Assembly (NCBI GenBank): GCA_963749705.1 | Contig: CAVVNQ010000022.1 | Span: 1 to 23,664 of the forward strand | From: an uncultured Chloroflexia bacterium | GTDB taxonomy: Bacteria; Chloroflexota; Limnocylindria; Limnocylindrales; CSP1-4 | DNA: 23,664 bases | Reading direction: 5' to 3' | Part shown: one piece after another, positions 5,279 to 23,664 of the stretch | Layout: each line of letters begins with the position of its first letter | How positions within the stretch are numbered: the stretch's first letter is position 1 | Translations under genes and position numbers: made by a program | The notes under the pieces: generated by a model | Seen by the model: the letters and a program-made list of their open reading frames with translations, nothing else | What the model was told of the DNA's origin: nothing | Database searches by the model: none

Positions 5279-5956
5279 ATGACCATTCGCCGCCATCGGC
5301 TGGCATCGATCACGGTGCCCATGGTGTTCTCGCTGCTCCTGCTCGGCTCGCTCGCCGGACCTGCGGCGGCATCCAGCAAGTTCAAGCTCGACCTGTACTT
5401 CGCATCCGGCTACGAGCGCCAAATCGACGGACGGACGTGTACCGCAGCATCGACCGCGATGATGCTCAACTTCATCGCCCGTCGTGACCTGCACCTCGAC
5501 CAGATGAGCATCCTTCAATTCGAGCAGCCGGTCGATGCCCTCGACAACCGGGTGCAGCGAGGCTCGGACCCGCTCGGCTGGTCGATCGCCGCGACGGAGT
5601 TCTCGGCTCGCGAGGACATCCCTTCGACATATGCCTGGAAGGCGTACAACAGCGAGAGCACGGCGCTGCGCACGGCGGCACTGGCGATCGCCCGCTACCA
5701 CAAGCCGGTCGGCCTCGCGATCTGGCACGGCGGCCACGCGGTGGTGATGACCGGGTTCGAGGCCACCCGCAACCCGGCGCTCGGCGGACATTGGACGCTC
5801 ACCGCGGTGTACATCAGCGACCCCTATGGCGCTCACCACGCGCGCTATGCTCCTGCGCTGCGGTCACCGCTCAACGCCTATCTCAAGCTGGATGCGACCA
5901 CCAAGTACGACAAGGCGTGGTACCGCAAGTACGTCATCATCCAGCCGCTCCGCTGA
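5279..5956 (+). CDS. Secreted C39-like (papain-fold) cysteine peptidase family protein
   Basis: Signal-peptide-like N-terminus (RRHR, hydrophobic core, PAAA). Q-x5-CTAASTAMML, GGHAVVMTG and YISDP give a Cys-His-Asp triad pattern. Alternative ATG at 5252. Confidence 0.72.
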   Translation: MTIRRHRLASITVPMVFSLLLLGSLAGPAAASSKFKLDLYFASGYERQIDGRTCTAASTAMMLNFIARRDLHLDQMSILQFEQPVDALDNRVQRGSDPLGWSIAATEFSAREDIPSTYAWKAYNSESTALRTAALAIARYHKPVGLAIWHGGHAVVMTGFEATRNPALGGHWTLTAVYISDPYGAHHARYAPALRSPLNAYLKLDATTKYDKAWYRKYVIIQPLR

Positions 5957-6029
5957 GATCCGCCGACGCCCGCCAGGGTCAGAGACGCCCTGCGTGAGCC
6001 AAGCAGCCCAACGAGGACCACGACACCCG

Positions 6030-7079
6030 ATGGACGACGGCATGCCGACGAAGGGTCGATCGGTCCGTGACGGCTCGCCCGGCATCCGGCACCGCAGCGC
6101 CGATCCGTGGAGCGTCGCCCATCCGGACGTCGGGGTCGGGGTCGCGCGCCGCAGCGACGAGCGGGATCCGGCCTCGTACGCGTACTGGGCCAACCTCGAT
6201 GTCGAGCCGGTGCCGTGGGTCCGCCCGGGACGAAGCTATCGCCGGCCGGCGATCCAGCTGCTCGGGTCGGCGATCGTCGTCGCCGCATTCCTGGTCGTCG
6301 TCGTGGGCATGTCGGCCGCGATCGGCGGAATGACGCGCGCGGTCGGGCCCCGTCCGAGCGTCGCCGTCGTCGGGGTCCATGCGGCCACACCATCGCCCTC
6401 ATCGCCGGCCGCCTCGCTCGCCGCGTCGCCGCCCGCGGACACCACCGAGCCGCCCGCGCCGGTCCGCGAGCCGGTCGATGTCAACATCGACGACCAGCCG
6501 AAGCTCGTGTTCATCTCCGAGCAGAAGAACACCTGGTGTGGGGCGTCCGCAGTCCAGATGGCGCTCAACGTCCTCGGCCCCGCCATCGACGTCACCGCCG
6601 CCTACCAGAAGGTCATCCGGCAGCTCGAGGTGGACTACACCGACCATGAGGACAGCCACAACGGCGGGGCCGGGCCGGTCGGCATGGCGGCCGCCCTCAA
6701 TGAGCTGGGGGGCGTCACCTACGAGCTGCGGATCTACGACACCCGCGCGCAGGCCCTGTTCGACAGTGCGCGCGCGATCAGCTCGACCGGCGAGCCGGTC
6801 ATCCTCCTTGCCTGGCGCGGCGCCCACGCCTGGGTCATGACCGGATACCGGGCCGATGCCGATCCCACCCTGTTCGACGACGCCAAGGTGGATGGCGGCT
6901 ACGTCCTCGACCCCTGGTACCCGCGCGTGTCGTCGATCTGGGGACCGTCGGATCCGCCCGGCACATACCAGAACGCAGCCGAGATGAAGCGCAACTTCCT
7001 GCCCTGGAAGCGGCCCGAGGGCGCGTACCCGGGGCGCGACGGCAAGTACCTGGTGCTGGTGCCTTCGGACGCTCCCTGA
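6030..7079 (+). CDS. Membrane-anchored C39-like cysteine peptidase family protein
   Basis: ATG at 6030 with GAGGA upstream (start uncertain). TM segment LLGSAIVVAAFLVVVVGMSAAI, a Pro/Ser/Ala linker, then EQKNTWCGASAVQMAL, GAHAWVMTGY and YVLDPW. Confidence 0.72.
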   Translation: MDDGMPTKGRSVRDGSPGIRHRSADPWSVAHPDVGVGVARRSDERDPASYAYWANLDVEPVPWVRPGRSYRRPAIQLLGSAIVVAAFLVVVVGMSAAIGGMTRAVGPRPSVAVVGVHAATPSPSSPAASLAASPPADTTEPPAPVREPVDVNIDDQPKLVFISEQKNTWCGASAVQMALNVLGPAIDVTAAYQKVIRQLEVDYTDHEDSHNGGAGPVGMAAALNELGGVTYELRIYDTRAQALFDSARAISSTGEPVILLAWRGAHAWVMTGYRADADPTLFDDAKVDGGYVLDPWYPRVSSIWGPSDPPGTYQNAAEMKRNFLPWKRPEGAYPGRDGKYLVLVPSDAP

Positions 7080-7122
7080 TCGCCCGCTCGCGCGGTCGCG
7101 GGTGCCCTCCGCCCACGCGCCA

Positions 7123-8043
7123 TCAGCCCCGGGGCAGCCGAGCCTCGGGCCCGTCGGGCGTCTCGTGAACCTCGAGGAGGCCCTCCGAACCAAGCGCGAG
7201 GACCGCTTCGCGAACGGCGGCGGGATCATGGCCGCCGATCCGTTCCCCGAACGGGATCAGGGCGCCATCGGCCGCGTCGCGGGCACGCGCGATGATCCGG
7301 CCACGCAGCCAGCGCGTGGTCGACGGGAACGGGGCAGCCGGGCGTCGTGGGCTCCCGCTCACGGCGGCCCGCCGTGGCGCCGCCCGCTCCCCCGCCGCGT
7401 ACCGGCACCAGGCCATCGCCGGGCAGTCGGCGCAGCGCGGGTTCCGCGGGCGGCACGGCCCAGCGCCGATGTCCATGAGCGCGTGCGTCCAGTCCCCGGC
7501 CCGATCGGGCGGGACCACCGCATCGGCCAGCGCCTGGAGCTCCGCGGGCGCAAGCGCCTCGGCCCCGCCGGCCGCGATCCGCCCGAGGACCCGCCGCACG
7601 TTGGTGTCGACCGCCCCGACCGGCAGCCCGAACGCGATCGCCGCGACGGCCCGCGCCGTGTACGGTCCCACGCCGGGCAGGGACCCGAGGCCCGCCACCG
7701 TGGCGGGTACGGAGCCGCCGTGCTCGGTCACGATCGCCTTCGCGGCCCGATGGAGATGGATCGCCCGCCGGTTGTAGCCCAGCCCCGCCCACGCCCGGAG
7801 GACGTCGGCAGCGGGTGCCGCGGCCAGCGCCTCGACCGTCGGAAAGCGGGCCATCCATGACGTCCACGCTTCGGCGGCGCGCGCCGCCTGCGTCTGCTGC
7901 GCCATGAGCTCCGAGACGAGGACCGCGTACGGATCGCGCGTCGCCCGGAAGGCGAGCCGGCGCCCGCTCACCTCGAACCAATCGAGGATGGCGTTGCGCA
8001 GGGCGGTCGGGATCGGGTCGACGGGCGGGTCGGGATCGGCCAC
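7123..8043 (-). CDS. mutY: A/G-specific adenine glycosylase, short form (306 aa)
   Basis: Motifs DPYAVLVSELMAQQT, WAGLGYNRRA, LPGVGPYTARAVA (HhH), VDTNVRRVL and the Fe-S loop CRPRNPRCADCPAMAWC. GTG at 8043 was chosen because the longer ORF is antisense to the LLM gene. Confidence 0.93.
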   Translation of the reverse strand: MADPDPPVDPIPTALRNAILDWFEVSGRRLAFRATRDPYAVLVSELMAQQTQAARAAEAWTSWMARFPTVEALAAAPAADVLRAWAGLGYNRRAIHLHRAAKAIVTEHGGSVPATVAGLGSLPGVGPYTARAVAAIAFGLPVGAVDTNVRRVLGRIAAGGAEALAPAELQALADAVVPPDRAGDWTHALMDIGAGPCRPRNPRCADCPAMAWCRYAAGERAAPRRAAVSGSPRRPAAPFPSTTRWLRGRIIARARDAADGALIPFGERIGGHDPAAVREAVLALGSEGLLEVHETPDGPEARLPRG

Positions 8044-9015: not shown

Positions 9016-9064
9016 GGCGAACCGGCGTCAGGCGAACCGGCGTCAGGCGAACCGGCGTCAGGCG
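9016..9064. repeat. Perfect 15-bp tandem repeat (GGCGAACCGGCGTCA) x3 plus 4 nt
   Basis: Units at 9016-9030, 9031-9045 and 9046-9060 are read directly from the sequence. The last unit contains the hemY stop codon. Confidence 0.95.
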
Positions 9065-10542
9065 GCCGGGACCGGCTCCCGCGCCCCCTCCTCGATCGCA
9101 CCGCCCAGGCGCGCGCGCACCGTCGCAGCGGCGACGTGCGCCTGCGAGATGCAGTCGGGCAACCCCACGCCGCGGTACGAGGCACCGGTCGTGATGACCG
9201 CGGGCCAGGTGGTCATGGCCGCCTCGATGGCCGCCACCCGGCCGAGATGACCGACGGTGTAGCGGGGCATCGCGCCCGCGTTCCGGTACACGCGAACCAG
9301 CGACGGCGGCCCGGCGATCCGGAGCGTCTGCTCGGCGTCGGTGCGTGCGGCGGCCACCAGTTCCGCCTCGGGCATCGAGGTCCAGCTGCCCTCGTCGCGC
9401 ACGAACATGCGAAGCAGCAGGGTGTCGGCCGGCGCCCGGTCGGGCCACTTCTCGGACGACCAGGTACACGCGGCGATCGCGCCGCCCTCGGTCGGCGGGA
9501 CGAGATAGCCGTGGCCGACGATCGCGCGCCCCACGCTCGCTCGCGGATACGCGAGCGTGACCAAAATGCTGGTTCCGTGCGGGATCGTCCGCAGCACCCG
9601 CGAGGCGCCCGGGACCTCGTCATCGAGCAGCGCCGCCGCAGGTGGCGCCGGAGTGGCGAGGATCACCGCGTCGAAGCGGCCGGCCGTCCCGTCCGCGAAC
9701 GTGGCGCTCACGCCCGCACCCGCACGCGCAAGGCTCCGGACCGCCAGGCCCGTCCGGATGTCCACCCCCGCCTCGGCCAGCGAGGTCGCGAGCACATCGA
9801 TGAGCGTGTCCATGCCACCCCGGAGGCTCGCGAACACGCCCAGCGGCTTCGGCATCGGCCCTGGTCCGGCGATCGGCGCCGTCGCCGCGGCAGACCTCGC
9901 CGCGGCAGCCCTCGCTGCAGCTGCACGCCGCATCGCCCGGCCGTCGGCAAGCCCCGCGAGCAGCAGGCTCCGGTGGTCGCGCTCGGCGGCTCGCAGCTGG
10001 GGAACCACCGCGTCCAGGCTGAGCTCGTCGATCGGCGTCCCGTAGACGCCGCCGACCAGGGGCCCGGCCAGCCGGTCCACCAGCGCGTTCCCGAGACGGC
10101 GCCGCAGGAACGTGCCCACGGCGACGTCATCGTCATCGAGCACGCGGCGCCAGGCGACATCCTTCGCCATCCGCGCCTTCTCGGGCCACGAGAACAGCCG
10201 CGTCCGCGCGAACGGCATTGCCCGCGTGGGCAGCACCAGGCCCAGCCCCTCGGGCATCGGGACCAGGTCGCCGCGGTGGCGGATGTAGACCGCCCGCGGG
10301 TTCCTCGTGCCCACCAGCGCGTCGGCCAGGCCGAGCTCGCGCGCCAGGGCGACGGCCGCGGGGCGCGTGGTCAGGAACGAGTCCGGGCCACGCTCGATCA
10401 CCAGGCCCTCGACCCGCTCGGTCGACACCTTGCCCCCCAGGCGGTCGCCCGCCTCGACGAGCGTGACGGGAACACCGTCGCGGGCCAGCTCCCGGGCGGC
10501 GGCGAGCCCGGTGATCCCGCCACCGACGATGAGGACGCTCAT
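9058..10542 (-). CDS. hemY: Coproporphyrinogen III / protoporphyrinogen oxidase (HemY/CgoX)
   Basis: Motifs VLIVGGGITGLAAA, RLGGKV, IERGPDSFL, GHGYLVP, WSSEKWP.RAP, MPRYTVGH and GVGLPDCI. Last gene of the hem operon. Confidence 0.95.
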   Translation of the reverse strand: MSVLIVGGGITGLAAARELARDGVPVTLVEAGDRLGGKVSTERVEGLVIERGPDSFLTTRPAAVALARELGLADALVGTRNPRAVYIRHRGDLVPMPEGLGLVLPTRAMPFARTRLFSWPEKARMAKDVAWRRVLDDDDVAVGTFLRRRLGNALVDRLAGPLVGGVYGTPIDELSLDAVVPQLRAAERDHRSLLLAGLADGRAMRRAAAARAAAARSAAATAPIAGPGPMPKPLGVFASLRGGMDTLIDVLATSLAEAGVDIRTGLAVRSLARAGAGVSATFADGTAGRFDAVILATPAPPAAALLDDEVPGASRVLRTIPHGTSILVTLAYPRASVGRAIVGHGYLVPPTEGGAIAACTWSSEKWPDRAPADTLLLRMFVRDEGSWTSMPEAELVAAARTDAEQTLRIAGPPSLVRVYRNAGAMPRYTVGHLGRVAAIEAAMTTWPAVITTGASYRGVGLPDCISQAHVAAATVRARLGGAIEEGAREPVPAA

Positions 10543-10570
10543 CGGATTGCGCGCGGCGCCGCGGCCGCGA

Positions 10571-11801
10571 TCAGCCCGCAGCCGCCGCGGCGGCGGGGAC
10601 GATCCCATACTGCGGGACGTTGCCCGACGGCACGTACGGGCACAGCGGGTCGGCCTCGAGCGGATCGCCCGTCCACGCCCACGCGCGCGCCCTCGAGCCC
10701 CCGCAGATCCGCGCGTACTCGCATGCCCCGCAGCGACCCTTGAAGCCCTCGGGCCTGCGCAGGTCCCGCATCACCGGGTGGTCCCGGTACAGGTCGACGA
10801 TGCTCGCCTCGCGAACGTTGCCCAGCGGGATCGGCAGGAAGCCCGACGGGTTGACCGTCCCGTCGTGGCTGATGAACACGATCCCGTTGCCGTCGCGGAT
10901 GCCGAACCCGCGACCGACGGACGAGCCGGCGATCGCGTCCGCGTCCATCCCGTCGGCCTCCATCGCACGGACGGCGATCCGGCGGTAGTGCGTGGCCTCG
11001 GTCGTCTTGACCTGGAACGGCGCCGTCTTCGACAGCCCCCACAGCCACTGGTTGAGCTTCTCCGACTCGCCCGGCGACACCTCGCGGAGCGCGGACCCGC
11101 GGCCGGTGGTGATCAGCATGAACAGCGCCCAGCGCAGGATGTCCATGCCCTTGAGCAGCTCGTAGATCGCCGGCAGGTCCGCCAGCGTCTCGTCGGTGAC
11201 CAGCGTGTTGACCTGGATCGGCAGGCCCGCGGCGCGCGCCCACCTCGCCGCCTGGAGCGTCTTGTCGAACGTGCCCGGGACCATCCGGAACCCGTCGTGA
11301 CGCTGCGCATCGGAGCCGTCGATCGAGAGCGAGATGTTCTGGATCCCCGCGTCGCGCAGCGACTCCAGGACCGGCTGGGTCAGGAGCGGAGTGGCCGCAG
11401 GCGCCAGCGACGCGCCGATCCCGCGTGCGGTCGCGGCGCGGACGAGGTCGTGGAGGTCGGGGCGGTTGAGCGGGTCGCCGCCGGTGAACACGACGTGCGG
11501 GTACGGGACGGCCGAACCCGGTGATGTCGTCGAGCAGGCGGTACCCCTCCTCGATCGTCAGCTCGAGCGGGTTCCGTTCGGCCTGCGCGGTGGCACGGCA
11601 ATGGCGGCAGGCGAGCCCGCAGGCGAGCGTCGTCTCCCAGTACACGAGCATCGGGGCCCGGGCGTAGACGTAGCCGTCGGCGCGAACGGCGCCCACGCCC
11701 GTGATGCCACCGGGATGGCCGCCAGGGTGCCCGCCGGGGTGTCCGCCCGGATGGCCATTTCCGGGGTGTCCGCCGGGTGCACGGTCCGTGATCGTCGTCA
11801 T
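10571..11801 (-). CDS. Radical SAM/SPASM protein, TIGR04053-like (NirJ/AhbD-related), with an apparent +1 frameshift near 11505-11507
   Basis: The 5' part (ATG 11801, overlapping the hemH stop) has VYWETTLACGLACRHCRA (CxxxCxxC). The 3' part has FTGGDPL, SLSIDG, TTEATHYRR and GRCGACEYARICGGSRARA...DPLCPY. The span is 3n+1, and removing one G from GGG at 11505-11507 joins the halves as FGRPYPHVVFTGG. Confidence 0.85.
11706..11774 (-). repeat. Coding repeat of five GHPG units at the radical SAM N-terminus
   Basis: Translation GGHPGNGHPGGHPGGHPGGHPGG, with different synonymous codons in the units. Confidence 0.9.
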
Positions 11802-12748
11802 CGGATGTCTCCTCCGGCCGCCGCGGCGACCGTCTCGGGGGCCAGCGCCGCGGCGGCGAGATCGGCCAGCCCGGCGATGAAGGTGGGGTCGGTGTTCATC
11901 GAGCGCGCCCGTTCGAGCCGGATGCCCGCCTCGCGGGCGACCGCCTGCGCCTCGATGTCGATGTCGTAGAGCACCTCGAGGTGATCCGCCACGAACCCGA
12001 TCGGCCGGATCACGAGGTCGGCGACACCGTCGGCGGCCAGGCGCCGGATCTCGTCGAGGATGTCGGGGCCGAGCCACGGCTCGCCCGTCCGGCCGGCGCT
12101 CTGGAACGCGAAGTCGTAGCGCTCGAGGCCAAGCCGTTCCGCCACCAGCCGGGCCGTACCCGCGAGCTCGTCGGGGTAGGGGTCGCCGTCGGCGAGGACG
12201 CGGGCGGGCAGGCTGTGCGCGGTGAACATGACGCGCACGGTTGAGGCGTCGTCGAACCGGTCCAGCGCCTCGCGCGTGGTCGCCGCCATCGCCTCGATGA
12301 ACCGCGGCTGGTCGTACCACGAGTCGACGAAGACGACTGCCGGAGCGCCATCGCCGAGCGAGGACAGCGCCCCGTCGACCGCCCGGCGATACCCGGCGGC
12401 GTTGGACGACCTCTGGGGCGCCAGGGCGATGGCGACGAGGCGCTCGACACCGTCCGCCGCCATCCGGGCGACCACGTCGCCGATCCGCGGCTCGATGTGG
12501 CGCATCCCCGCGTATACCGGCATGGGTCGATCGCGAGCCGCCAGGTCCGCCTCGACCGCCGCTCGCTGCGCCTCGACGATCCGCGACAGCGGCGAGCCGC
12601 CGCCGATCGCCCGGTAGCGCCCGAGCAGCTCCTCGAGCAGGTGCGGCGGCGGCGGGCTGCCGCGCCGGATGTCGGTGTAGTAGGCCTCCACCTGGTCGAG
12701 CCGGTCGGGGCTGCCATAGGCCATCAGCAGGACGGCGTCGTGGGTCAT
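11798..12748 (-). CDS. hemH: Ferrochelatase (coproporphyrin ferrochelatase CpfC, Bacillus-like type; 316 aa)
   Basis: Motifs VLLMAYGSP, YYTDIRRG, RYRAIGG.SPL, FTAHSLP, FQSAGRTGEPWLGPD and GFVADHLEVLYDID. ATG at 12748 overlaps the hemE stop. Confidence 0.95.
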   Translation of the reverse strand: MTHDAVLLMAYGSPDRLDQVEAYYTDIRRGSPPPPHLLEELLGRYRAIGGGSPLSRIVEAQRAAVEADLAARDRPMPVYAGMRHIEPRIGDVVARMAADGVERLVAIALAPQRSSNAAGYRRAVDGALSSLGDGAPAVVFVDSWYDQPRFIEAMAATTREALDRFDDASTVRVMFTAHSLPARVLADGDPYPDELAGTARLVAERLGLERYDFAFQSAGRTGEPWLGPDILDEIRRLAADGVADLVIRPIGFVADHLEVLYDIDIEAQAVAREAGIRLERARSMNTDPTFIAGLADLAAAALAPETVAAAAGGDIR

Positions 12749-13820
12749 CGGGACGCTCCATGGTCGTGGACGAGGTCGACGACGCGGGCGAGGGCGTCGG
12801 GATCGGTGCCCGGCAGGACGCCGTGTCCCAGGTTGAAGATGTGGCCCGGCCGGCCGTCGTTCTGGTCGAGGATCCAGCGGGCGCTCTCCTCGACGGCATC
12901 CCACGGGCCGAGCAGCAGGGTCGGGTCCAGGTTCCCCTGGACCGCGCGGTCGCCGACCAGCTCGCGCCCGTCATCGATGGCGATCCGCCAGTCGAGCCCG
13001 ATCACGTCGCCGCCCGCTGCGGCCTGCTGGCGGAGGATCCCGGCCGTGCCGACGCCGAAGTGGATGATGGGCACGTCGAGCGGGGCGATGCCATCGAACA
13101 GGCGCCGCATCCACGGCGCGAGTCGGCGCTCGTAGTCGAGCGGGCTCAGGCCGCCGACCCAGGAATCGAACACCTGGACGGCCTCGGCGCCCGCGGCGAC
13201 CTGCGCCGACAGGTACCGGATGGTGGTCTCGACCAGCTGGTCCAGCAGGGCAGCCCACGCCTCGGGGTTCTCGTGCATCAGCCGCTTGGTGTGCAGGAAG
13301 TCGCGCGACGGGCCACCCTCGACGAGGTAGCACGCGAGCGTGAACGGCGCCCCGGCGAACCCGATCAGCGGCACAGGTGATTCGGCGCGGACCAGACGGA
13401 TCGCCTCGAGCAGGGCTGGGACCGCTGCCTCGGGCTGGAAGGTGCGAAGCGCCCGGACGTCCGCGATCGTGCGCACCGGGTGCTCGATGACCGGGCCGAC
13501 GCCCTCCCGGATGTCGAACGCGACCCCCATCCCGGCGAGCGGCGTCGTGATGTCCGCGAACAGGATCGCGGCATCGACGCCCAGGCGCCGGACCGGCTGG
13601 AGCGTGACCTCGGCGCACAGGGCCGGGTCGCGGGTGATCTCGAGCAGGGTGGCCCGTTCGCGGACCTTGCGGTATTCGGGGAGGGCCCGGCCCGCCTGGC
13701 GCATGAACCACACCGGCGTTGCGTCCACGCGCTCGCTGCGGGCGGCGCGCAGGAACCGCGCATCCGGGCGAGGCTCGGGAGCCGGGGCGACGGGGAGCGG
13801 CCCTCGCAGCGCCTTCACGG

Positions 13821-13824
<4 letters not shown>
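12745..13824 (-). CDS. hemE: Uroporphyrinogen decarboxylase
   Basis: Motifs PVWFMRQAGR.LPEY, DAAILFADI, LIGFAGAPFTLA.Y, QVFDSW, VQGNLDP and HIFNLGHG. Confidence 0.97.
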
Positions 13825-15134
<1,310 letters not shown>

Positions 15135-15136
15135 GA

Positions 15137-16180
15137 TCAGGACTCCCGGGACCAGGCCGCGAGGTCGCCGGCGGCATAGGTGATCACGAAGCCGGCACCG
15201 GCCCGCAGGATGGCGGTCGTGCTCTCGGTCAGGGCGCGGCGCCGGTCGAGCCAGCCGCGCTCGGCCGCCGCTTCGATCGAGGCATACTCCCCGCTCACCT
15301 GGTACGCCCCGATCGGGACGTCAAAGCGGCGCCGCGCCTCGGCCAGGATGTCGAGCGACGGCAGCGCCGGCTTGACCAGCAGCATGTCCGCACCCTCGGC
15401 GAGGTCGATCGCCATCTCGCGCATCGACTCCCGCCCGTTGGCCGGATCCATCTGGTAGCCGCGCCGGTCCCCGAACGACGGGGTGGATCCTGCGGCGTCA
15501 CGGAACGGGCCGTAGAAGGCGGACGCCGTTTTCGCGGCGTAGGCGAGGATCGCCGTGTCGTGGTACCCGTCGGCGTCCAGCCCGCGACGGATCGCGGCAA
15601 CCTGGCCGTCCATCATCCCGCTGGGCGCGACGATGTCGGCGCCTGCCTCGGCCTGCGAGGCGGCGGTCCGCGCGTACAGCTCGATCGTGGCGTCGTTGTC
15701 GACCCGCCCGTCGGCGAGCAGCGGCCCGCAGTGGCCGTGATCCGTGTACTCGCACAGGCACGTGTCGGCGATCAGGACCATGTCCAGGTCCGCATCGCGA
15801 AGCCGGCGCAGCGCCTCCTGGACGATCCCGTCCGCGACCCAGCCGCCGGTGCCCACGGCGTCCTTCCCGGCCGGGAGCCCGAACAGGATCAGGCCGCCGA
15901 CGCCCGACGCGGCGAGCGCCCGAGCGTCGCGCACGGCCTCGTCAGGGGTCACGCGCTCCACGCCGGGCATCGAGCCCACGGGATCGCGGCGTCCGTGTCC
16001 GGGCTGGACGAACAGCGGCGCGACCAGCTGGCGGGGATGGATCCGCGTCTCGCGCACGAACGCGCGCAGCGCGTCGGTCCGGCGCGTGCGGCGGAGCCGG
16101 TGGGCGGGATCGGGGACGACCACAGCGTCGTCGCCGGTGGATGGATCGGCGACGGCCGGCCGATCGGCGATGAGGCTCAT
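15137..16180 (-). CDS. hemB: Porphobilinogen synthase (Zn-dependent type)
   Basis: Motifs DTCLCEYTDHGHCG, APSGMMDG, SAFYGPFRDA, YQMDPAN, LVKPA and AYQVSGEY. Confidence 0.97.
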   Translation of the reverse strand: MSLIADRPAVADPSTGDDAVVVPDPAHRLRRTRRTDALRAFVRETRIHPRQLVAPLFVQPGHGRRDPVGSMPGVERVTPDEAVRDARALAASGVGGLILFGLPAGKDAVGTGGWVADGIVQEALRRLRDADLDMVLIADTCLCEYTDHGHCGPLLADGRVDNDATIELYARTAASQAEAGADIVAPSGMMDGQVAAIRRGLDADGYHDTAILAYAAKTASAFYGPFRDAAGSTPSFGDRRGYQMDPANGRESMREMAIDLAEGADMLLVKPALPSLDILAEARRRFDVPIGAYQVSGEYASIEAAAERGWLDRRRALTESTTAILRAGAGFVITYAAGDLAAWSRES

Positions 16181-17943
16181 CGAGCTCCTCCGGGAGTGAG
16201 GCCGGCGGCGTACGCGACCGGCGGGGCGAGGACATCGGTCTGGTCGAGCAGCGGGGTGTGGCTCGCCGAAACCCCGAGGGAGGTAGCGACGAACCGGGCG
16301 AGGTCGGCTGCTGCGGGCGACGGGGCGACGAGGACGGTGGCGAAGCCGAGCGAGCGCGCGGCCTCCGCGGTGGGCGCGCCGATCGCCACGACCGGCGTCG
16401 CTCGCAGCCGTTCGTGCGTCTCGGGCTCCGAGGCCAGGGCGAGCAGCCCGCGCACGGTGGATCCGCTGGTGAGCACCAGGGCGTCGATCGGGCCGTCGTC
16501 GAGGGCATCGGCGAGCAGCGCCCGCGAGGCCTCGGGGCCTTCGACGGTGCGGTAGGCGATCACCTCGGTGACCGTGGCGCCACGCGCCTCGAGGGCAGCC
16601 GGCAGCGCGGAGTCGGCAATGTCGGAGCGCGGCAGCACGACGCGGTCACCGGCCTCGATCGGCAGCTCGCGGGCCAGCACTCGTCCGCTCGCGGTCGACG
16701 GCCGGAACGCCACACTGATCCCAGCAGCACCGAGGATGGTGGCCGTGCCGTCGCCGATCGCGCTCCACCGACGGCGACGAGGATCGATCCCGCTCCGGAT
16801 GACCGCCTCGACCGCCGCCACGGCCGCGTTGCGGCTGGTGATCACGAGCCAGTCGCCCGAACCACCGCCGGCCAGCGCCCTGTCCAGCGCGCCGTCCGGC
16901 ACGGCCGGCAGGATCTCGATGGCCGGGACGTTGACGGCGGCGACGCCGGCGTTCTCGAGCGCGGCAAGGAGCGGCTGCGCCTGGCCCGCCGCCCGGGCGA
17001 CCAGCACCCGGGGAGCGCGGCGCAGCGTCACGATGCGCGCCGCCAGGCGCTCCGCCAGGGCGAGATGATCAACGGCGGGTGCCTCCCCGCCGACCCGGAC
17101 GACCGGGGACGGGGCGATCGGCGAATTGGGCGTCGGTGTCCATTCGCGTTCGGCCGCAGCCACCAGCCGGAGCCGCCCGCGCGAGACCGTCCCGATCGCG
17201 CCGATCGGCGACCGGCAGCCACCGCCGGTCGCGTTGAGCAGCGCCCGCTCGGCCACGACCGCCACGCGCGTCGCCGGGTCGTCGAGCCGCCCGACGGCCT
17301 CGATCGCGCGGGCGTCGTCCGAGCGCACCTGGATCGCGAGCGAGCCCTGGCCCGGCGCGGACACGACCTGGCCCGACGGCAGGATCTCGTCGATCCGGTC
17401 AGCCCGGCCGAGCCGCGTGAGCCCGGCGACCGCGAGCACCAGCGCGTCGCTGTCGCCGCGGTCGAGCTTGGCCAGCCGCGTGTCGACGTTCCCGTGCAGC
17501 GGGTGCATCTGCAGATCGGGCCGGAGCGCATGGAGGAAGGCGGTGCGGCGCGGGCTGTCGGTGCCGACGCGTGCACCCTCGGGCAGCGTGGCCAGCGTCG
17601 TGCCCCGGATGCGGCACACCAGCGCGTCGCGCGGGTCCTCGCGCGGCGGGTAGGCGGCGATCACCAGGCGCGCGTGCTCGTCCGTCGGGACGTCCTTCGC
17701 GCTGTGGACGGCGATGTCCACGGACCCGTCGAGCAGGGCGCCGACGATCGCACCCACGAACGCGCCTTCGCCCCACGCGGTGTCGATCGGTCGATCATCG
17801 CCCTCGGTCCGGATGATCACGAGGTCGGCCGGCACGCCGTCCTCGGCCAGCCGCGCGGCAACCCAGCGCGCCTGGACGAGGGCAAGGGGGCTGCCACGGG
17901 TGCCGATGCGAAGCGCGACGGTCATCTCGGGATCCACGGGCAT
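16177..17943 (-). CDS. hemC: Fused hydroxymethylbilane synthase / uroporphyrinogen-III synthase (HemC-HemD, 588 aa)
   Basis: N-terminal HemC motifs: LRIGTRGSPLALVQA, DIAVHSAKDVP, REDPRDAL, GNVDTRL.KL, GGCRSPIG. C-terminal HemD motifs: LVITSRNA, AIGDGTA, V.EVIAYRT, LTSGSTV, AIGAPTA. One continuous frame; ATG at 17943 overlaps the hemA stop (TGATG). Confidence 0.93.
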   Translation of the reverse strand: MPVDPEMTVALRIGTRGSPLALVQARWVAARLAEDGVPADLVIIRTEGDDRPIDTAWGEGAFVGAIVGALLDGSVDIAVHSAKDVPTDEHARLVIAAYPPREDPRDALVCRIRGTTLATLPEGARVGTDSPRRTAFLHALRPDLQMHPLHGNVDTRLAKLDRGDSDALVLAVAGLTRLGRADRIDEILPSGQVVSAPGQGSLAIQVRSDDARAIEAVGRLDDPATRVAVVAERALLNATGGGCRSPIGAIGTVSRGRLRLVAAAEREWTPTPNSPIAPSPVVRVGGEAPAVDHLALAERLAARIVTLRRAPRVLVARAAGQAQPLLAALENAGVAAVNVPAIEILPAVPDGALDRALAGGGSGDWLVITSRNAAVAAVEAVIRSGIDPRRRRWSAIGDGTATILGAAGISVAFRPSTASGRVLARELPIEAGDRVVLPRSDIADSALPAALEARGATVTEVIAYRTVEGPEASRALLADALDDGPIDALVLTSGSTVRGLLALASEPETHERLRATPVVAIGAPTAEAARSLGFATVLVAPSPAAADLARFVATSLGVSASHTPLLDQTDVLAPPVAYAAGLTPGGAR

Positions 17944-19190
17944 CACAGCGAGAACAGGGCTCGGGCGGCACGTTCCAGGTCGCCGGTCGAGTCGTCGCGC
18001 AGCGTGGCCAGCGGGTCGTGCAGCAGGCCCGCCACCAGCCGATGGCTCATCTGCTCGACCAGCTCCCGCTGGTGGTCGGCGAGGTCGAGCCGCCGGAACA
18101 GGCGATCCAGCTCCTCCAGCCGGCGCGTCTCCGCGCGATCGCTGAGGGCCTGGATCGCCGGGACGCTGTTCCGCGTGGCGACCCACTGGCTGTACTTTGC
18201 CTCCGCGGCGTCCAGCACCCGCTCGAACCGCCGGCGAAGCCGCGCGCGCATCTCGTCGTGCGGGTTCCGGGCAAGGTCGTCGACCGACACGTGCCGCCCG
18301 GCGATCCGGGCGCGGAGATCCGGGTCGAGCGCGGGCGGCGATGACAGGTCGGCAACCGGAAGTTCGTTCGCGATGAGCGCGGATCGCGCGACGGACGACA
18401 GTGGCCAGCGGGCGCTGATCGCGACCACGACCGCGTCCACCTCCGGCAGGGCTGCATCCGATCCGAATGCCGCCGGCTCGCCGTTGACGTCGTACGCCAG
18501 CGCCGCCGCTCGTTCGCTGCTGCGATTGGCGACCAGGACGTGGGCGCCCTGCCGTGACGCCGAGACGGCTGCCAGCCGGGCCATGCGTCCGGCACCGACG
18601 ACGAGGACCTTGCGTCCGAGCAGCGGCCCGGTGAACGGGAGAAGGCGGTCGAGCGCAGCGTCGGCAAGCGAGCGCGGCGGACCTTCGCGCCATGAGCGTG
18701 TCTCGCGGCCAAGGTGGAGCGCGATCTGGAACAGGCGCTCGAGAGCCGGGTGCAGCCCGATGGCATGCGAGCTCGCCGAGCCGATCGGTTCGGGGCATCG
18801 TTCGGCGCCCGGAACACGTCGATCGGAGAGGCACTCGCGCAGCTGGTGGAGGATCTGATCCTCGCCCACCACCACCGAATCGAGGCCCGCCGCCACCGTG
18901 AACAGGTGCCGGGCCGCGGCGGCACCCTCGAGCCGGCGACCGCCGCGCGGCAGGGCAGGCAGGGGTGGCAACGGATGGCCATCGAGGGGTTCATCGACGA
19001 CGTACAGCTCAGCGCGATGGCAGGTGCGAACGAGGATCGCGCGCGGATCATCGGCGATCGATGCGGCCGCAGCGGCGAACGCCTCGCGCTCGTCGCTCTC
19101 GACATGGCGCGCGTGGAGCACGAGGGCGAGCACGTGCAGACGCAGATCTGCGCGGGGGTCGGTCACGGAGGGATCGCGGGGATCGGTCAC
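17943..19190 (-). CDS. hemA: Glutamyl-tRNA reductase (divergent)
   Basis: TCHRAELY (canonical TCNR.E.Y), AGLDSVVVGEDQIL.Q, NADPH motif VLVVGAGRM, VANRS and C-terminal LLHDP. First enzyme gene of the operon. Confidence 0.9.
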   Translation of the reverse strand: MTDPRDPSVTDPRADLRLHVLALVLHARHVESDEREAFAAAAASIADDPRAILVRTCHRAELYVVDEPLDGHPLPPLPALPRGGRRLEGAAAARHLFTVAAGLDSVVVGEDQILHQLRECLSDRRVPGAERCPEPIGSASSHAIGLHPALERLFQIALHLGRETRSWREGPPRSLADAALDRLLPFTGPLLGRKVLVVGAGRMARLAAVSASRQGAHVLVANRSSERAAALAYDVNGEPAAFGSDAALPEVDAVVVAISARWPLSSVARSALIANELPVADLSSPPALDPDLRARIAGRHVSVDDLARNPHDEMRARLRRRFERVLDAAEAKYSQWVATRNSVPAIQALSDRAETRRLEELDRLFRRLDLADHQRELVEQMSHRLVAGLLHDPLATLRDDSTGDLERAARALFSL

Positions 19191-19885
19191 GACGGGCTCC
19201 CGGGATTGGGGTTGGATGCTCGACGCGAGCGTCGGCTGGCCCCCAGCGCCGCGGGCTCCCAGCCGCGAAGGGTTGCGAGCAGCAGGTCGTCGAGCGCCGT
19301 GTTGGCGTCCGTGAACAGCCTGGAGGTAGCGTCGGCATCGAACTCGCGCCGACGGGCGATCGCGCCCAGCTCGGCGATGAACGGGCGCCGGAAGCGCAGG
19401 AACAGGTCGGCCGTCGTTGCCGACCCGAGGCCCTCGCGTCCGGCGATCCGGCCGTACTCGGTGCAGGCGTCCTCCGCATCCCTGAGGAGCTCGCGCCGGC
19501 GGCGCTCATCGGAGGTGTCGAGCGCGGCAACGAGCGCCGTCACGATGCCGCGGCCGTACTGGCGAAAGCGCTCGCGACTCTCGTCGCTGAGCTCGGCGAC
19601 CCACGGGATTCGGCTGGGCGTCTCGTCGGCCGCGCGACGGTAGCCCCGTGCCATCCGGCCCGGTGTCTCGCCAAGGGCGGTGAGCGACGGTCGACCGCTC
19701 GGCTGGTCCGGCAGCAATGCCTGGAGCCCGCCTCGCGAGAAGCGGCGGTGACCGCCCGGGGTCACGAATGTCCGAACCATGCCGCCGTCACCCCAGCGGC
19801 GCACCGTGGACGGCGAGACGCCGAGCAATCGGCAGGCCTCGGTGAGCGTGACCCAGTCGGGGTCGGCGGCTGCTCGGGCTCGCAT
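19187..19885 (-). CDS. Helix-turn-helix (excisionase/BldC/MerR-like) DNA-binding protein with C-terminal helical domain; putative heme operon regulator (232 aa)
   Basis: WVTLTEACRLLGVSPSTVRRWGDGG...TPGGHRRF matches the HTH_17/BldC pattern. The stop overlaps the hemA GTG (GTGA). ATG at 19885 with GGGAGG upstream. Confidence 0.85.
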   Translation of the reverse strand: MRARAAADPDWVTLTEACRLLGVSPSTVRRWGDGGMVRTFVTPGGHRRFSRGGLQALLPDQPSGRPSLTALGETPGRMARGYRRAADETPSRIPWVAELSDESRERFRQYGRGIVTALVAALDTSDERRRRELLRDAEDACTEYGRIAGREGLGSATTADLFLRFRRPFIAELGAIARRREFDADATSRLFTDANTALDDLLLATLRGWEPAALGASRRSRRASNPNPGSPS

Positions 19886-19895
19886 CGGGGACGCA

Positions 19896-19964
19896 AAACC
19901 TCCCAAATCTACCAAACCTTCGCGGAAATCAAAGCATAGTAGGTTTCCCTCGGGGGGGTATCGA
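19896..19964 (-). promoter_or_regulatory. Putative promoter (-35 TCGATA, 17 bp, -10 TACTAT) and direct-repeat operator of the hem operon
   Basis: AT-rich island. -10 at 19936-19941 and -35 at 19959-19964. Plus-strand AAA(C/T)CT occurs at 19896, 19905 and 19914 (9-bp period), with an inverted copy at 19941-19946. Confidence 0.6.
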
Positions 19965-20190
19965 CAGGGCCGTCCGGTCCGCGTATGGCCCGCCGAAGGC
20001 ACGGGTCGGCCGGGACTTCTCGCCGCTCGGTGATGAAATCGGTGGGACCCGCCGACGGCCCGGTTGGCCGCAACGCGCTACCGTTGGCAGCCTCGGACCG
20101 CGGCCCGTAATCGCCGGTGTCGTTCGGCCCTCGGCCTCCCCGACCGGCAGGCGCACGACGTCGCTACCGGCTGCCATGCAGGAGCGTTCC

Positions 20191-20868
20191 ATGACCAGCC
20201 CCGATCCCAACAGCACGGTTCGCTACGCCGTGTGGGCCGTCTATGCACGCGTCGGGTCGCCGCCGGACGGGACCGGTGCTGCGACCGAGCTCGAGGCGTG
20301 GGCCGCGGCACTCGCCGACGACGATGTCGTCCTCCGCGGCTGGTACGACGTCTCGGGCTTGCGCGCCGATGCCGACGTGATGCTCTGGCTCCACGGACCG
20401 AGCGCCGAATCCCTCCAGGCCGCGCTGCGCGGCTTTCGCCGGACGGCCGTCGGTGCGGCCACTGATATCGCGTTCTCGATGATGGGCACCCACCGACCGG
20501 CCGAGTTCAGCCGTGACCACGTGCCGTCGTTCATGCTCGGAACTCGTCCCCTCGGGTGGCTGTGCGTCTACCCCTTCGTCCGGTCATATGAGTGGTACCT
20601 GCTGCCCGACGACGAGCGGCGGGCGATGCTCGCCGAGCACGGCACGGCGGGCCGGGCATTTGCGCGCGTCCAGGCGAACACGGTCGCCGCCTTCGCTCTC
20701 AACGACTACGAGTGGATCCTGGCCCTCGAGTCTGACGATCTCCACGATCTCGTGGACCTCATGCGCGATCTCCGCTCCACGGGGGCGCGGCGGCATGTGC
20801 GCGAGGAGATCCCGTTCCACACCGGCCGGCGGATCGAGGCCGACGGGGTCATCGACGTCCTGCGGTGA
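20191..20868 (+). CDS. hemQ: Coproheme decarboxylase / H2O2-dependent heme synthase (ChdC/HemQ), actinobacterial type
   Basis: Motifs RGWYDVSGLRADAD.M.W.H, HRPAEF..DH.P.F, YPFVRSYEWYLLP..ERRAMLAEHG and AFALNDYEWILA. AGGAG SD before ATG 20191. Confidence 0.93.
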   Translation: MTSPDPNSTVRYAVWAVYARVGSPPDGTGAATELEAWAAALADDDVVLRGWYDVSGLRADADVMLWLHGPSAESLQAALRGFRRTAVGAATDIAFSMMGTHRPAEFSRDHVPSFMLGTRPLGWLCVYPFVRSYEWYLLPDDERRAMLAEHGTAGRAFARVQANTVAAFALNDYEWILALESDDLHDLVDLMRDLRSTGARRHVREEIPFHTGRRIEADGVIDVLR

Positions 20869-21954
20869 CCAGCAACCACGACGCCATCCTCCTGGTCTCG
20901 TTCGGCGGGCCGGACGGCCCCGACGACGTGATGCCGTTCCTCGAGAACGTGACGCGGGGTCGGGGCATCCCACGAGCACGACTCGAGGCGGTGTCCCACC
21001 ACTACCTCGCGCTCGGGGGTGTGAGCCCGATCAATGACCAGAACCGTGCACTCCTGGACGCGCTCCGAGGCGAGTTGGCGGCGCGCCGGGTGGAACTCCC
21101 CCTCTATTGGGGGAACCGGAACTGGGAACCCTTCCTCGCCCCGACGCTGGAGCAGATCCGCGCCGACGGACGCAAGCGTGTCCTCGCGCTCGTGACCAGC
21201 GCATACGCGTCGTACTCGGGCTGCCGTCAGTACCGGGAGGATCTCGCACGAGCCCTCGAGGCCACGGGGCTGTCGGGTGACCTCGTGATCGACAAGGTCC
21301 GCCTGTACTTCGACCACCCGGGGTTCGTCGGACCCTTCGCCGAAGGGCTGGCGACCGCGCTCGCGGAGCTGGCGACGCTCGGGTTCGAACGGGATGAGAC
21401 GCGCGTCATGTTCACGACGCACTCGATCCCGCTGTCGATGGCCGCGGCGTCCGGTCCGCCCGGCGGCTTCGACGCCGGCGGCGCCTACGTGTCCCAGCAT
21501 CAGGCGGCGATCGGCGCCGTGCTCGACGAGGCACGAGCCCGCGGCGCCGACCTGCCCCGATGGTCGCTCGCGTACCAGTCGCGCAGTGGATCCCCGACCG
21601 TCGCCTGGCTCGAGCCGGACATCAACGACGCGCTCCGCGATGCACGAGCGGAGGGGATGCGGGCCGTCGTGGTCGCTCCGATCGGGTTCGTCAGCGACCA
21701 TGTCGAGGTCGTGTGGGACCTCGACCACGAGGTACGCGAGACGTGCGAGACCCTGGGCGTGCGCATGCACCGGGTCGCGACGCCGGGGACCCATGCGCGG
21801 TTCGTGGCCGGCCTTGCCGACCTGATCGAGGAACGCGTTTCGGGCCGGCCGGCCGCGGCCCGCAGCTCACTCGGGCCCTGGCCGTCGACATGCGCGAGCG
21901 ACTGCTGCGCGAACCCGCGCGGCGCGAGCGCCGGCCATCGCCGGAACGGAATAG
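20865..21954 (+). CDS. hemH: Second ferrochelatase (CpfC, actinobacterial type with Cys-rich tail); probable +1 frameshift near 21920-21932 (uncorrected ORF runs to 22145)
   Basis: Motifs LLVSFGGP.GPDDV.PFLENVTRGRGIP, GGVSPIN, YWGNRNW.P, SYSGCRQY, FTTHSIP, WLEPDIND, GFVSDHVEV.WDLD and CASDCCANPR. The shifted frame gives a natural end PAIAGTE* at 21954, whereas the unshifted tail is low-complexity and overlaps the convergent gene. Confidence 0.9.
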
Positions 21955-22029
21955 CCCCCGTCGCATCCCTCATGGCGCAGCGCCGGGCATGGGGCCGCGG
22001 ACTGCGCAAACAGACCGGCCGGGGATCAA

Positions 22030-22056
22030 CGCGGCCGCCGGGTTGCGGCGGCCGCG
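22030..22056. terminator. GC-rich hairpin between convergent genes, possible terminator
   Basis: CGCGGCCGCCG-GGTTG-CGGCGGCCGCG is a perfect 11-bp stem. No clear U-tract. Confidence 0.5.
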
Positions 22057-22102
22057 GATCTGGCGTCAGGCGAATGGCGGTCGACCGCCTCGCCGGGGCG
22101 AG

Positions 22103-23558
22103 CTACTCGCCCGTGTTGATCGTGATGTGCTTGACGAACGTGTAGTCCTCGAGCGCGTACTTGGAGCCGTCCTTGCCGTAGCCCAATTCCTTCACGCCGC
22201 CGTGGGGGGTCTCGGACGACAGCGTGAAGTGCTCGTTGATCCACACGGTGCCGTACTGCAGCCGACGCGCGACGCGCATCGCCTTGCCGATGCTGCCGGT
22301 GAACACCGACGACGCGAGGCCGAACTTGACGTCGTTCGCCCACTGGACGGCCTGCTCCTCGTCGGAGAACCGCTGGACCGTGACGACCGGGCCGAACACC
22401 TCGTCCTGGACGATCTCACTGCCCTGGTCCGGGTTGGCGATGACCGTGGGCTCGAAGTAGGCGCCCGGCCGATCCGGCCGGTGCCCACCAAGCACCAGCT
22501 CGGCCTTGGCCTCGAGCGCTCGATTGACCATGCCCTCGACCTTATCGGCCTGCGCCTGGGCGATGAGCGAGCCCATGTCGAGGTCGTCGGCGTCGGCGGG
22601 GTTGCCCCACTTGATCGTCTTCACCTGGTCGGCGAGCGCCGCGATGAGCGGCTCGTAGACCTTCGGCCCGGCGATCACGCGGCAGGCCGCGGTGCAGTCC
22701 TGGCCACTGTTCCAGTAGCCGGCCGACTTGAGGATCTCGGCCGCGAGGTCGACATCGGCGTCGTCGAACACGATCACGGGCGCCTTGCCACCCAGCTCGA
22801 GATGGAGCTTCTTGACCGTGCCGGCCGCCAGCTCCGCGATGTGCTTTCCGGTCACGGTGTCGCCCGTGATCGAGACCATGCGCACCTTCGGGTGGGACAC
22901 CAGGAAGTCGCCCATCGCGCCGCCCGAGCCCGCCAGGACGTTGAGCACGCCCGCCGGCAGCTGGTCCGCGATCAGCTCGGCGAACCGGAGCGCCGACAGC
23001 GGCGTCCGCGCCGACGGCTTGAGCACGACCGTGTTGCCCGTCGCGAGCGCGGGCCCGAGCTTCCAGGCCGCCATGTACAGCGGGTAGTTCCAGGGCGCGA
23101 TCGAGGCCACGACGCCGATCGGGTCGCGGCGGATCATCGAGGTGTGGCCGTCGAGGTACTCCGTGACCGCGAGCCCCTCGGGGATGCGGCAGGCGCCGGC
23201 GAAGAACCGGAACAGGTCGCTCGAGGTGGCCATCTCGTCGATCGCGGCCGCGGTCGGCTTGCCCGGTCTGGCTCGACTCCAGCCGGCCGAGCTCGTCGCC
23301 GTTGGCGTCGAGGATGTCGGCGATCCTGAGCAGCGCGAGGCTGCGCGTCTGGGGCGTGGTCAGCGACCAGCTCTCGAACGCGTCCGCGGCGGCGTCGACG
23401 GCGCGGTTGACGTCCTCCAGGCCTGATGCGGGGACCGTGGCGACGACCTCGCCCGAGGCGGGGTTCTCGACATCGAGCGTCGCTCCTGAGACGGCGTCCA
23501 CCCACTGGCCGCCGATGAACTGCTGGTACGACTTGACGGGGTTGAGGGTCTCGGTCAC
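22103..23558 (-). CDS. NAD-dependent aldehyde dehydrogenase, gamma-aminobutyraldehyde dehydrogenase (PatD/YdcW)-like; apparent +1 frameshift at 23262-23264
   Basis: 5' part has FIGGQWV and VENPASGEV. 3' part has HTSMIRRDPIGVV.SIAPWNYPL.MAAWKL, LELGGKAP, NSGQDCTAA and EVFGPV. Removing one C restores SQTGKP. GTG at 23558 with GGAGG SD. Confidence 0.9.
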
Positions 23559-23664
23559 TGGAGCCTCCATCGGCACGGATGCGCGCTCGTCGCTGACGGG
23601 ATGATCACCCCGGATTGTGCGCCTGCCCGCGGCGGCGTTCCACCCCGGGCCCACGTCGCGCGAC

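Follow-up and report, generated by a model that had tools for sequence, protein, structure and literature searches.

Among described proteins, the closest counterpart of the DNA-binding part of the regulator reported here is BldC of Streptomyces, a 68-amino-acid (aa) MerR-like winged helix-turn-helix (HTH) protein (structures 6ama and 6amk) that governs development and not heme synthesis. BldC is described as a winged HTH alone, without an effector domain, which assembles on DNA repeats (PMC5859096). In that account it binds 9-bp direct repeats of the form AATTXXXX(C), such as GATTTCCCC and CATTTGCAC, on which its subunits stack head-to-tail, with the wing residue His46 sitting in a narrowed AT-rich minor groove (PMC5859096). 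The regulator shares the sequence and fold of this winged HTH, but differs from BldC in carrying an additional folded sensor domain of ~150 aa. Its gene comes first in a heme-biosynthesis (hem) operon within a 23,664-nucleotide (nt) stretch of DNA from an uncultured Chloroflexia bacterium of the order Limnocylindrales (contig CAVVNQ010000022.1, assembly GCA_963749705.1), hereafter referred to as the window, where it occupies positions 19187-19885 of the minus strand and encodes 232 aa. We consider it probable that the protein is a one-component, ligand-controlled, autoregulated transcription regulator of the hem operon that it heads, with a tetrapyrrole as its probable ligand.

The sensor domain has described relatives among the non-heme sensor globins of the RsbR type, covered by the Pfam families RsbRD_N (PF14361) and Rsbr_N (PF08678) and represented by Bacillus subtilis RsbR-N (2bnl), Moorella MtR (3zta), Bacillus anthracis pXO2-61 (3pmc) and the N-terminal domain of Mycobacterium tuberculosis MabR (9fb1), whose fold it is predicted to share, with no significant sequence relation. 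While the proteins of that group stand alone or are coupled to STAS or GGDEF-like/PucR outputs, the output module of the regulator is a BldC-type HTH, and the domain order is reversed, the sensor being C-terminal. The heme-based globin-coupled sensors (HemAT, DosC, AfGcHK and GsGCS) hold heme through a proximal His and signal through MCP, GGDEF or kinase domains, whereas the sensor domain of the regulator contains no His and its output is an HTH. Rex, an NADH/NAD+ sensor with a Rossmann fold, is an unrelated protein, and nothing Rex-like appeared among the Pfam and NCBIfam matches of the regulator. It nevertheless provides the nearest positional analogue, since in the rex-hemACD operon of Streptomyces the regulator gene likewise comes first, ahead of hemA (PMC5355995). 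The nearest architectural analogue is MabR, described as a globin-like sensor within a transcription factor (PMC11617747). Finally, CarH and the photocobilins are reported to join an HTH of the MerR/HTH_17 kind to a tetrapyrrole-class cofactor (PMC10979010, PMC8717448). In contrast to CarH/LitR and the photocobilins, the regulator has no B12-binding domain detectable with Pfam; its C-terminal domain matches the photocobilin globin more weakly than the RsbR group, and we saw no light-sensing context.

The sequence-only reading of this DNA had placed the protein outside the recognised heme and tetrapyrrole regulators, and the known regulator families were indeed unmatched in the Pfam and NCBIfam searches. 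In the open-access library searched, no paper described a regulator of hem genes that joins an HTH to a globin. Nor does the available text of a 2024 review on how the coproporphyrin pathway is regulated name one; it mentions Chloroflexota only for mixed pathways (PMC10991733). We regard the combination of a BldC head with an RsbR-like globin as new, and its conserved genomic role as new as well.

Architecture of the regulator

The open frame at 19187-19885 comprises 232 codons with no internal stop, and full-length homologues support it; the identical protein is already annotated in a public protein collection. The longest in-frame version would start from a GTG at 20002 and encode 271 aa. 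Homologues, however, begin at about residues 1-10 of the 232-aa form, and the stretch upstream at 19893-19919 is a conserved non-coding repeat. At its other end, the TGA stop of the regulator overlaps the GTG start of hemA by 4 nt (GTGA; ...CCG TCG TGA over GTG ACC), as had been noted from the sequence. The identity of hemA (glutamyl-tRNA reductase; 17943-19190, minus strand) follows from its Pfam domains GlutR_N, Shikimate_DH and GlutR_dimer; the NCBIfam hemA model gave 153.6 bits, under its cut-off of 209.55 bits.

The N-terminal winged HTH spans residues 11-58 (19712-19855, minus strand). These residues matched HTH_17 (3e-7) and MerR (7.5e-7), the only Pfam families found in the regulator, as well as the NCBIfam model HTH_BldC (NF033787; E = 1.2e-10), the latter with 41.1 bits and hence under the curated cut-off of 77 bits. 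The BldC chains 6amk and 6ama matched the regulator at 8e-7 and 4e-6, in agreement with the BldC/Xis/MerR-type head proposed earlier. In the alignment, the residue numbering of the regulator equals that of BldC. The BldC structures are described as contacting DNA through T27, R30, W31, H46, R47 and R48, and as forming a head-to-tail interface in which F21, V23 and W31 pack on L11', I40', T42', L43' and G44' (PMC5859096). Contacts and interface are conserved in the regulator, where V23, T27, R30, W31, T42, G44, H46, R47 and R48 are identical to BldC, most of them invariant or nearly so across 88 diverse relatives. Four further positions carry hydrophobic or non-polar substitutions (W11, L21, F40 and P43). 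Differences from BldC are found at position 26, where Lys is replaced by Ser (Ser or Ala in the family), and at position 22, where Arg is replaced by Gly.

Position 43 is reported to be charged or polar in classical MerR proteins, which would forbid a head-to-tail dimer (PMC5859096). In the AlphaFold2 model, a loop (residues 58-74) and then the globin-like bundle come after the HTH, with no antiparallel coiled coil of the kind formed by the dimerisation helix of classical MerR proteins. Because position 43 is non-polar and no coiled-coil helix follows the HTH, we class the head with BldC and not with the classical MerR proteins. The upstream region likewise departs from a classical MerR operator, a palindrome within a 19-20-bp -35/-10 spacer, in that here the conserved element, a direct repeat, lies on the downstream side of the likely -10.

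The C-terminal part had been predicted to hold an all-helical, RsbR-N/protoglobin-like domain of ~150 aa, and structure prediction agreed. Residues 65-214 (19244-19693, minus strand) form a His-free, sensor-globin-like helical domain rich in conserved Arg in both models obtained (m94ea8355661c and m4f4d6e922c89). The AlphaFold2 model, based on an 88-sequence alignment, has a mean predicted local distance difference test score (pLDDT) of 90.5, with helices at residues 75-88, 94-98, 101-123, 127-150, 155-179 and 184-224. A second, independent model of residues 62-222, based on 76 sequences cut from genomic loci, has a pLDDT of 86.9 and a predicted TM-score (pTM) of 0.81. We compared each of the two models with 48,161 representative solved chains using VIA-align and obtained a nearly identical top of the list. 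It was led by B. anthracis pXO2-61 (12.5 and 12.0 for the two models; 132 of 132 residues at a root-mean-square deviation of 2.5-2.7), followed by Moorella MtR (10.2 and 10.2), the DosC globin (10.0 and 8.9), the N-terminal domain of MabR/Rv2242 (9.3 and 8.9) and that of RsbR (9.1 and 9.2). Heme-based sensor globins (AfGcHK, GsGCS and HemAT), phycobiliproteins, photocobilin globins and ordinary globins occupied lower ranks. Foldseek returned no match at E <= 0.001; among the matches listed, only MtR, RsbR-N, AfGcHK and one neuroglobin row exceeded a TM-score of 0.45, the first three with probabilities of 0.90-0.94. On the basis of these models, we assign the C-terminal domain with high confidence to the fold of the non-heme RsbR/pXO2-61-type sensor globins.

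Pfam and NCBIfam assigned neither a family nor a B12-binding domain to the C-terminal domain of this protein, and the B12-binding families PF02310 and PF02607 gave nothing at E <= 1 in the regulator and nothing at E <= 0.1 in 76 C-terminal domains of the family. Against solved structures, a profile of the full family returned only HTH matches, apart from TipAS (0.19) and pXO2-61 (0.97), and a profile of the C-terminal domain returned nothing below 0.26. The ESM Atlas search yielded only the family's own clusters, with scores of at most 0.84, and no longer fused form of the domain scored, which is weak evidence. The commonest sub-threshold match among the relatives was RsbRD_N (PF14361), found in 4 of 88 full-length sequences (best E 3.8e-4) and in 9 of 76 C-terminal domains (best E 0.0041).

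Candidate operator and gene neighbourhoods

Upstream of the regulator, 7-33 nt before its ATG, lies a candidate operator read from the sequence, consisting of three tandem 9-bp units, AGGTTTGGT AGATTTGGG AGGTTTTGC (19893-19919, minus strand), with an A/G-TTT core. Apart from this block, no stretch is well conserved in an alignment of 16 leaders from close orthologues; across the family, two or three tandem repeats of 9-10 bp with an AGATTT core recur. The corresponding 17-nt pattern, TTTGGNAGNTTTGGNAG, occurs in the 3.6-Mb genome only at this site and on a duplicate contig, with no occurrence of the reversed control pattern. Within the window it has a single site, compared with a mean of 0.12 matches in 100 shuffles, one of which reached two. 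For a stricter test, we required two AG[AGT]TT[TC] units at a spacing of 9 or 10 bp within -70 to +3 of the start codon. Such a pair was present in 55 of 111 family genes, as opposed to 0 of 110 regions further upstream, 0 of 111 regions inside the gene and 3 of 5550 shuffles. More distant hem-linked orthologues show a similar element with a 10-bp period, GGTAGATTTGAGTAGATTT, and members with 22-30% identity, in low-GC genomes and in operons with PucC-type genes, also carry the repeat element. The candidate sites resemble those of BldC in being direct repeats of 9 bp in tandem, AT-rich in their core; unlike the BldC sites, they have an AGATTT/GGTTT core in place of AATT, and in some clades a 10-bp period.

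A possible -10 hexamer, TACTAT (19936-19941, minus strand), lies ~17 nt upstream of the repeats; its position is conserved in the alignment, where close orthologues read TAnnAT. From this hexamer, we infer that the repeats are located on the transcribed leader. The leader gave no Rfam match at E <= 1 and RNAalifold found no consensus pairing in the 16 aligned leaders, which weakens a reading of the conserved element as a riboswitch or attenuator.

The repeat varies across the family. Its period is 9 bp in the close relatives of the window (L023-L035) and 10 bp in most other clades (L038-L070), and a third form, GAGCGAATTGCGCAGGTTCGAGCG, is found in L005, L064, L073, L082 and L084. The only strict pair in the genome besides that of the regulator, GGTAGGTTCTGGAGGTTCG, is located at G000:C3:438355 (locus L122, ~1550-1580), ~25 nt before a 179-aa open reading frame (ORF) with no Pfam family.

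A search of a library of 1.84 billion proteins returned 503 cluster representatives of the family at E <= 1e-10. Matches were found in 150 of 301 sampled genomes of the phylum Chloroflexota, a tally that includes two genomes flagged as unpublished (G227 and G173) with weak matches only. Close relatives are labelled Limnocylindrales, Limnocylindria, Chloroflexota or Dormibacterota, with few other labels. One of these exceptions, a 3-kb contig of a Phycicoccus-labelled metagenome-assembled genome, carries the regulator with hemA; as this is the only one among 61 genomes in its order with a full-length match, the contig is likely mis-binned, and we rejected an actinobacterial origin. The genome of the window itself has a second match, limited to the HTH (G000:C10:32205-32504, minus strand; 35% identity across residues 5-99), which falls within a long open frame.

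The sequence-only reading had named the neighbourhoods of homologues as a check, with a lack of linkage counting against it; the homologues proved to be strongly linked to tetrapyrrole genes. In the search of the phylum, hemA stood directly beside the regulator in 13 of 19 loci. In a second sample, the best 79 loci from species-representative genomes, the next gene downstream was a co-directional hem gene in 64 loci (hemA in 58 and hemC/D in 6), or 64 of the 75 with room for one; four of the 15 loci with no such gene end at a contig edge. Two loci, L005 and L018, contain two divergent paralogues each, and in L018 one of them heads hemA while the other heads hemQ. In a tree of 129 rows built with FastTree, one clade with a support of 99 took in 78 of the 81 hem-linked rows. 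This clade further contains 8 rows with other neighbours and another 6 at contig edges; the tree omits loci L081, L087, L094, L097, L098 and L100 owing to an extraction filter, and some of its rows are duplicates. Five genomes of genus g4, within the window's own family (93-95% complete), had no match for the regulator, hemA or ALAD, a co-absence that comes from one lineage and counts as one event.

Distant members, with 22-40% identity, had a heme-synthesis gene within 5 kb in 7 of 20 loci. A PucC-type transporter of the major facilitator superfamily (MFS; PUCC, PF03209) stood beside distant members in 21 of 40 loci, some of which also carried ChuX/HutX. In family f13, the regulator was followed by the PucC-type gene in 11 of 12 loci. 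The order was inverted in family f9: of its 13 loci, 10 had the PucC-type gene ahead of the regulator, and 4 had ChuX/HutX upstream. Operons uniting ChuX/HutX, the PucC-type transporter and the regulator are those of L103, L113, L135 and L141 in f9, whereas those of f13 (L102, L107, L124 and L126-L133) combine a nitroreductase with the regulator and the transporter. Four f9 genomes with the PucC-regulator pair (G019, G193, G218 and G258; 97-99% complete) gave no ALAD match. The ChuX/HutX-PucC-regulator operons may be a heme-uptake system in heme auxotrophs.

Proposed function, ligand and alternatives

In the mechanism that we propose, the BldC-type winged HTH would bind its own leader at the three repeat units, between the likely -10 and the start codon, probably as a head-to-tail array as in BldC. 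Bound on the transcribed leader and the ribosome-binding site, the regulator would in the simplest case repress its own gene together with hemA, hemCD, hemB, hemL, hemE and the genes that follow. The His-less globin of the RsbR/pXO2-61 type would use its conserved Arg, Tyr and Asp residues to hold a small anionic ligand, which would shift DNA binding or oligomerisation. Its most likely identity would be a tetrapyrrole, either heme or a porphyrin intermediate, resulting in end-product or intermediate feedback on the first committed enzyme.

Taken by itself, the assignment of a tetrapyrrole as the ligand is plausible but tentative. It is suggested by three independent gene contexts, namely the hem operons, the PucC-type transporters and ChuX/HutX, and by the residues conserved in the C-terminal domain, which are mostly Arg, Tyr and Asp and would suit propionate and acetate side chains. 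The positions in question are Y82, R83, R104, R108, Y144, R166, R178-R180, D183 and D199; W95, G111, G145 and F162 are also conserved in the domain. Among the 88 relatives, R108 is kept in 76, R166 in 84, D199 in 81 and Y144 in 53. Somewhat more tentatively still, the protein could be the founding member of a phylum-wide group of tetrapyrrole-responsive BldC-type regulators, in which a His-less globin reads heme or a porphyrin through Arg, Tyr and Asp and switches head-to-tail assembly on AGATTT repeats, serving feedback on the hemA operon in heme producers and control of a ChuX/HutX and PucC-type uptake operon in auxotrophs.

A different mode of heme sensing has to be set aside. Residues 60-232 are His-free, and the protein has a single His, H46, located in the wing of the HTH. 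As had been read from the sequence, the C-terminal domain combines an absence of His with one Cys and several Tyr: its 173 residues contain C141, Tyr at 82, 110 and 144, and 29 Arg. The proximal His of heme-binding globin-coupled sensors is missing, and position 209 is His in just 39 of the 88 relatives. Because none of the alignment columns of the domain shows a conserved His, Cys or Met that could ligate heme iron, canonical heme-iron ligation is excluded on the evidence of the sequences, and a classical heme-iron gas sensor is consequently unlikely. The earlier proposal of a one-component heme, porphyrin, redox or gas sensor controlling the pathway is supported, in that every part of it open to computation held good. 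Control of the pathway gained further support from a conserved tandem-repeat operator candidate, while gas sensing through heme iron appears the least likely of its options, given the absent proximal His.

Besides this lack of an iron ligand, a number of observations weigh against a tetrapyrrole-responsive hem regulator acting through the repeats. The nearest structural relatives are not tetrapyrrole binders, their ligands being fatty acid or unknown, and PF14361 did not match this protein, also in a profile search of its own genome, so that membership in RsbRD_N is not borne out at the sequence level. Neither a hem nor a PucC neighbour was present in 23 of the 129 tree rows, and the paralogues L081, L087, L097 and L100, likewise with no hem gene beside them, are flanked by MFS_3/MFS_1 transporters and an M20 peptidase. 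Many heme-making families of the phylum lack the regulator (ALAD in 12/12 vs regulator in 0/12 genomes of f16, 6/6 vs 0/6 in f17, 6/6 vs 0/6 in f27 and 17/17 vs 1/17 in f20, with f15 and f6 also having no members), and seven genomes of the class have a family member but no ALAD match. As for the operator, the strict pair is missing from 56 of the 111 family genes, several of these negatives being near misses, and the motif search of the window found no repeat at the hemQ-ferrochelatase end of the intergenic region. A scan of 19700-20300 for consensus sigma-70 promoters and terminators found nothing, and the placement of the repeats relative to a promoter is accordingly a presumed one. In addition, repeat units 2 and 3 overlap the GGGAGG ribosome-binding site, and for this reason part of their conservation could be translational. 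The conservation of unit 1 has no such explanation.

Several of these points would suit a regulator of the hem operon whose globin-like domain senses something other than a tetrapyrrole, be it iron status, a signal of redox state or stress, or a fatty acid or acyl compound. In that case physiology, and not product feedback, would tune heme synthesis, in analogy to Rex at the head of rex-hemACD in Streptomyces, a documented precedent (PMC5355995). We consider this unlikely, although it deserves real weight. The nearest folds are those of the non-heme RsbR/pXO2-61/MabR group, a fatty acid or acyl ligand has been proposed for pXO2-61 and MabR, and the RsbR globin family is described as potentially binding fatty acid (PMC8717448). 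The missing heme-ligating His, the 23 tree rows with no tetrapyrrole neighbour and the paralogues among MFS_3/MFS_1 and M20 peptidase genes are consistent with such a signal as well. On the other hand, the hemA operons, the PucC-type MFS genes and ChuX/HutX all point to tetrapyrroles, the conserved pocket candidates appear to be mostly Arg, Tyr and Asp and not a hydrophobic tunnel, and sensing of thiol redox state is disfavoured by a Cys that is not conserved in the family.

An improbable alternative is that the protein acts as a BldC-like DNA-binding or architectural regulator whose helical domain is an oligomerisation module with no ligand, and which regulates itself through its own protein level. 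The sensor-globin domains of RsbR-type proteins form dimers, and the gene stands behind its own candidate operator. BldC, as described, assembles on DNA repeats with no effector domain at all (PMC5859096). However, C-terminal positions that stay near-invariant and polar or charged in very distant members are seen more typically at a ligand site than at a packing interface, and a domain of ~150 aa exceeds the need of a dimerisation helix. Very improbable is an action mainly on the enzyme, in which the globin-like domain would bind glutamyl-tRNA reductase (GluTR), whether or not together with heme, and govern how active or how stable the enzyme is, in a manner resembling the GluTR-binding proteins of plants and HemX of Bacillus: it would fit the translational coupling implied by the 4-nt overlap and the immediate vicinity of hemA in 58 of the best 79 loci, but the DNA-binding residues of the HTH are invariant, a conserved repeat precedes the regulator gene, hemC/D takes the place of hemA in 6 of those 79 loci, and PucC-linked members occur in genomes where neither ALAD nor an adjacent hemA was found.

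The surrounding locus and implications for heme control

Beyond hemA, the co-directional hem run continues at 9058-17900 on the minus strand, where Pfam and NCBIfam identified, in this order, a hemC-hemD fusion, hemB, hemL, hemE, a ferrochelatase, an AhbD-like radical SAM/SPASM protein and a protoporphyrinogen-oxidase-like flavoprotein. Divergently from the regulator, the plus strand carries HemQ/ChdC (20176-20868) and a second ferrochelatase (20865-22145), recognised by the Pfam families Chlor_dismutase and Ferrochelatase (20176-22145 in total); this HemQ reached 321 bits with the NCBIfam model HemQ_actino, over the cut-off.

The locus contains two candidates for the last step of heme synthesis, the AhbD-like protein of the hem operon (10571-11557, minus strand), for which TIGR04053 and the heme b synthase model both remained under cut-off, and the divergent HemQ, which is of the actinobacterial type; these may represent oxygen-independent and peroxide-dependent routes. 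It also contains two ferrochelatase subtypes. The one at 11798-12904 (minus strand) fails the NF000689 cut-off, while the one at 20865-22145 (plus strand) reaches it and has a C-terminal extension of ~100 aa.

The whole window (1-23664, contig C22) nearly duplicates G000:C6:132052-157627, part of a 240-kb contig of the same assembly, at 92-99.9% identity, and is probably a strain variant or alternate haplotig of that stretch. The regulator is identical in both copies; positions 20911-22079, most of the second ferrochelatase, have no counterpart in C6, and 4845-7132 also differs. An aldehyde dehydrogenase gene (22103-23663, minus strand) is split into the overlapping frames 22106-23233 and 22545-23663 by a frameshift or an assembly error, and the C6 copy differs there by ~7 nt in length. 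We also considered the regulator as an excisionase or recombination directionality factor and rejected this reading, as none of the 31 window ORFs scanned with Pfam matched an integrase or recombinase family and 64 of the 79 related loci have heme-synthesis neighbours.

For heme control in the phylum, the analysis supplies a testable system made up of a putative regulator, its putative operator and a defined choice of ligands. If the more tentative reading of a phylum-wide, tetrapyrrole-responsive group is true, the protein would be the first effector-coupled member of the BldC family and would represent a new class of heme-homeostasis regulators. A regulator of the kind proposed here would widen the BldC family, so far a bare DNA-binding module, to include one-component systems under ligand control, and would give the RsbR-like non-heme globins a third type of output, the BldC-type HTH. 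In genomes with no ALAD match, the operons that link the regulator to ChuX/HutX and a PucC-type MFS transporter point to a possible route of heme uptake in uncultured auxotrophs.

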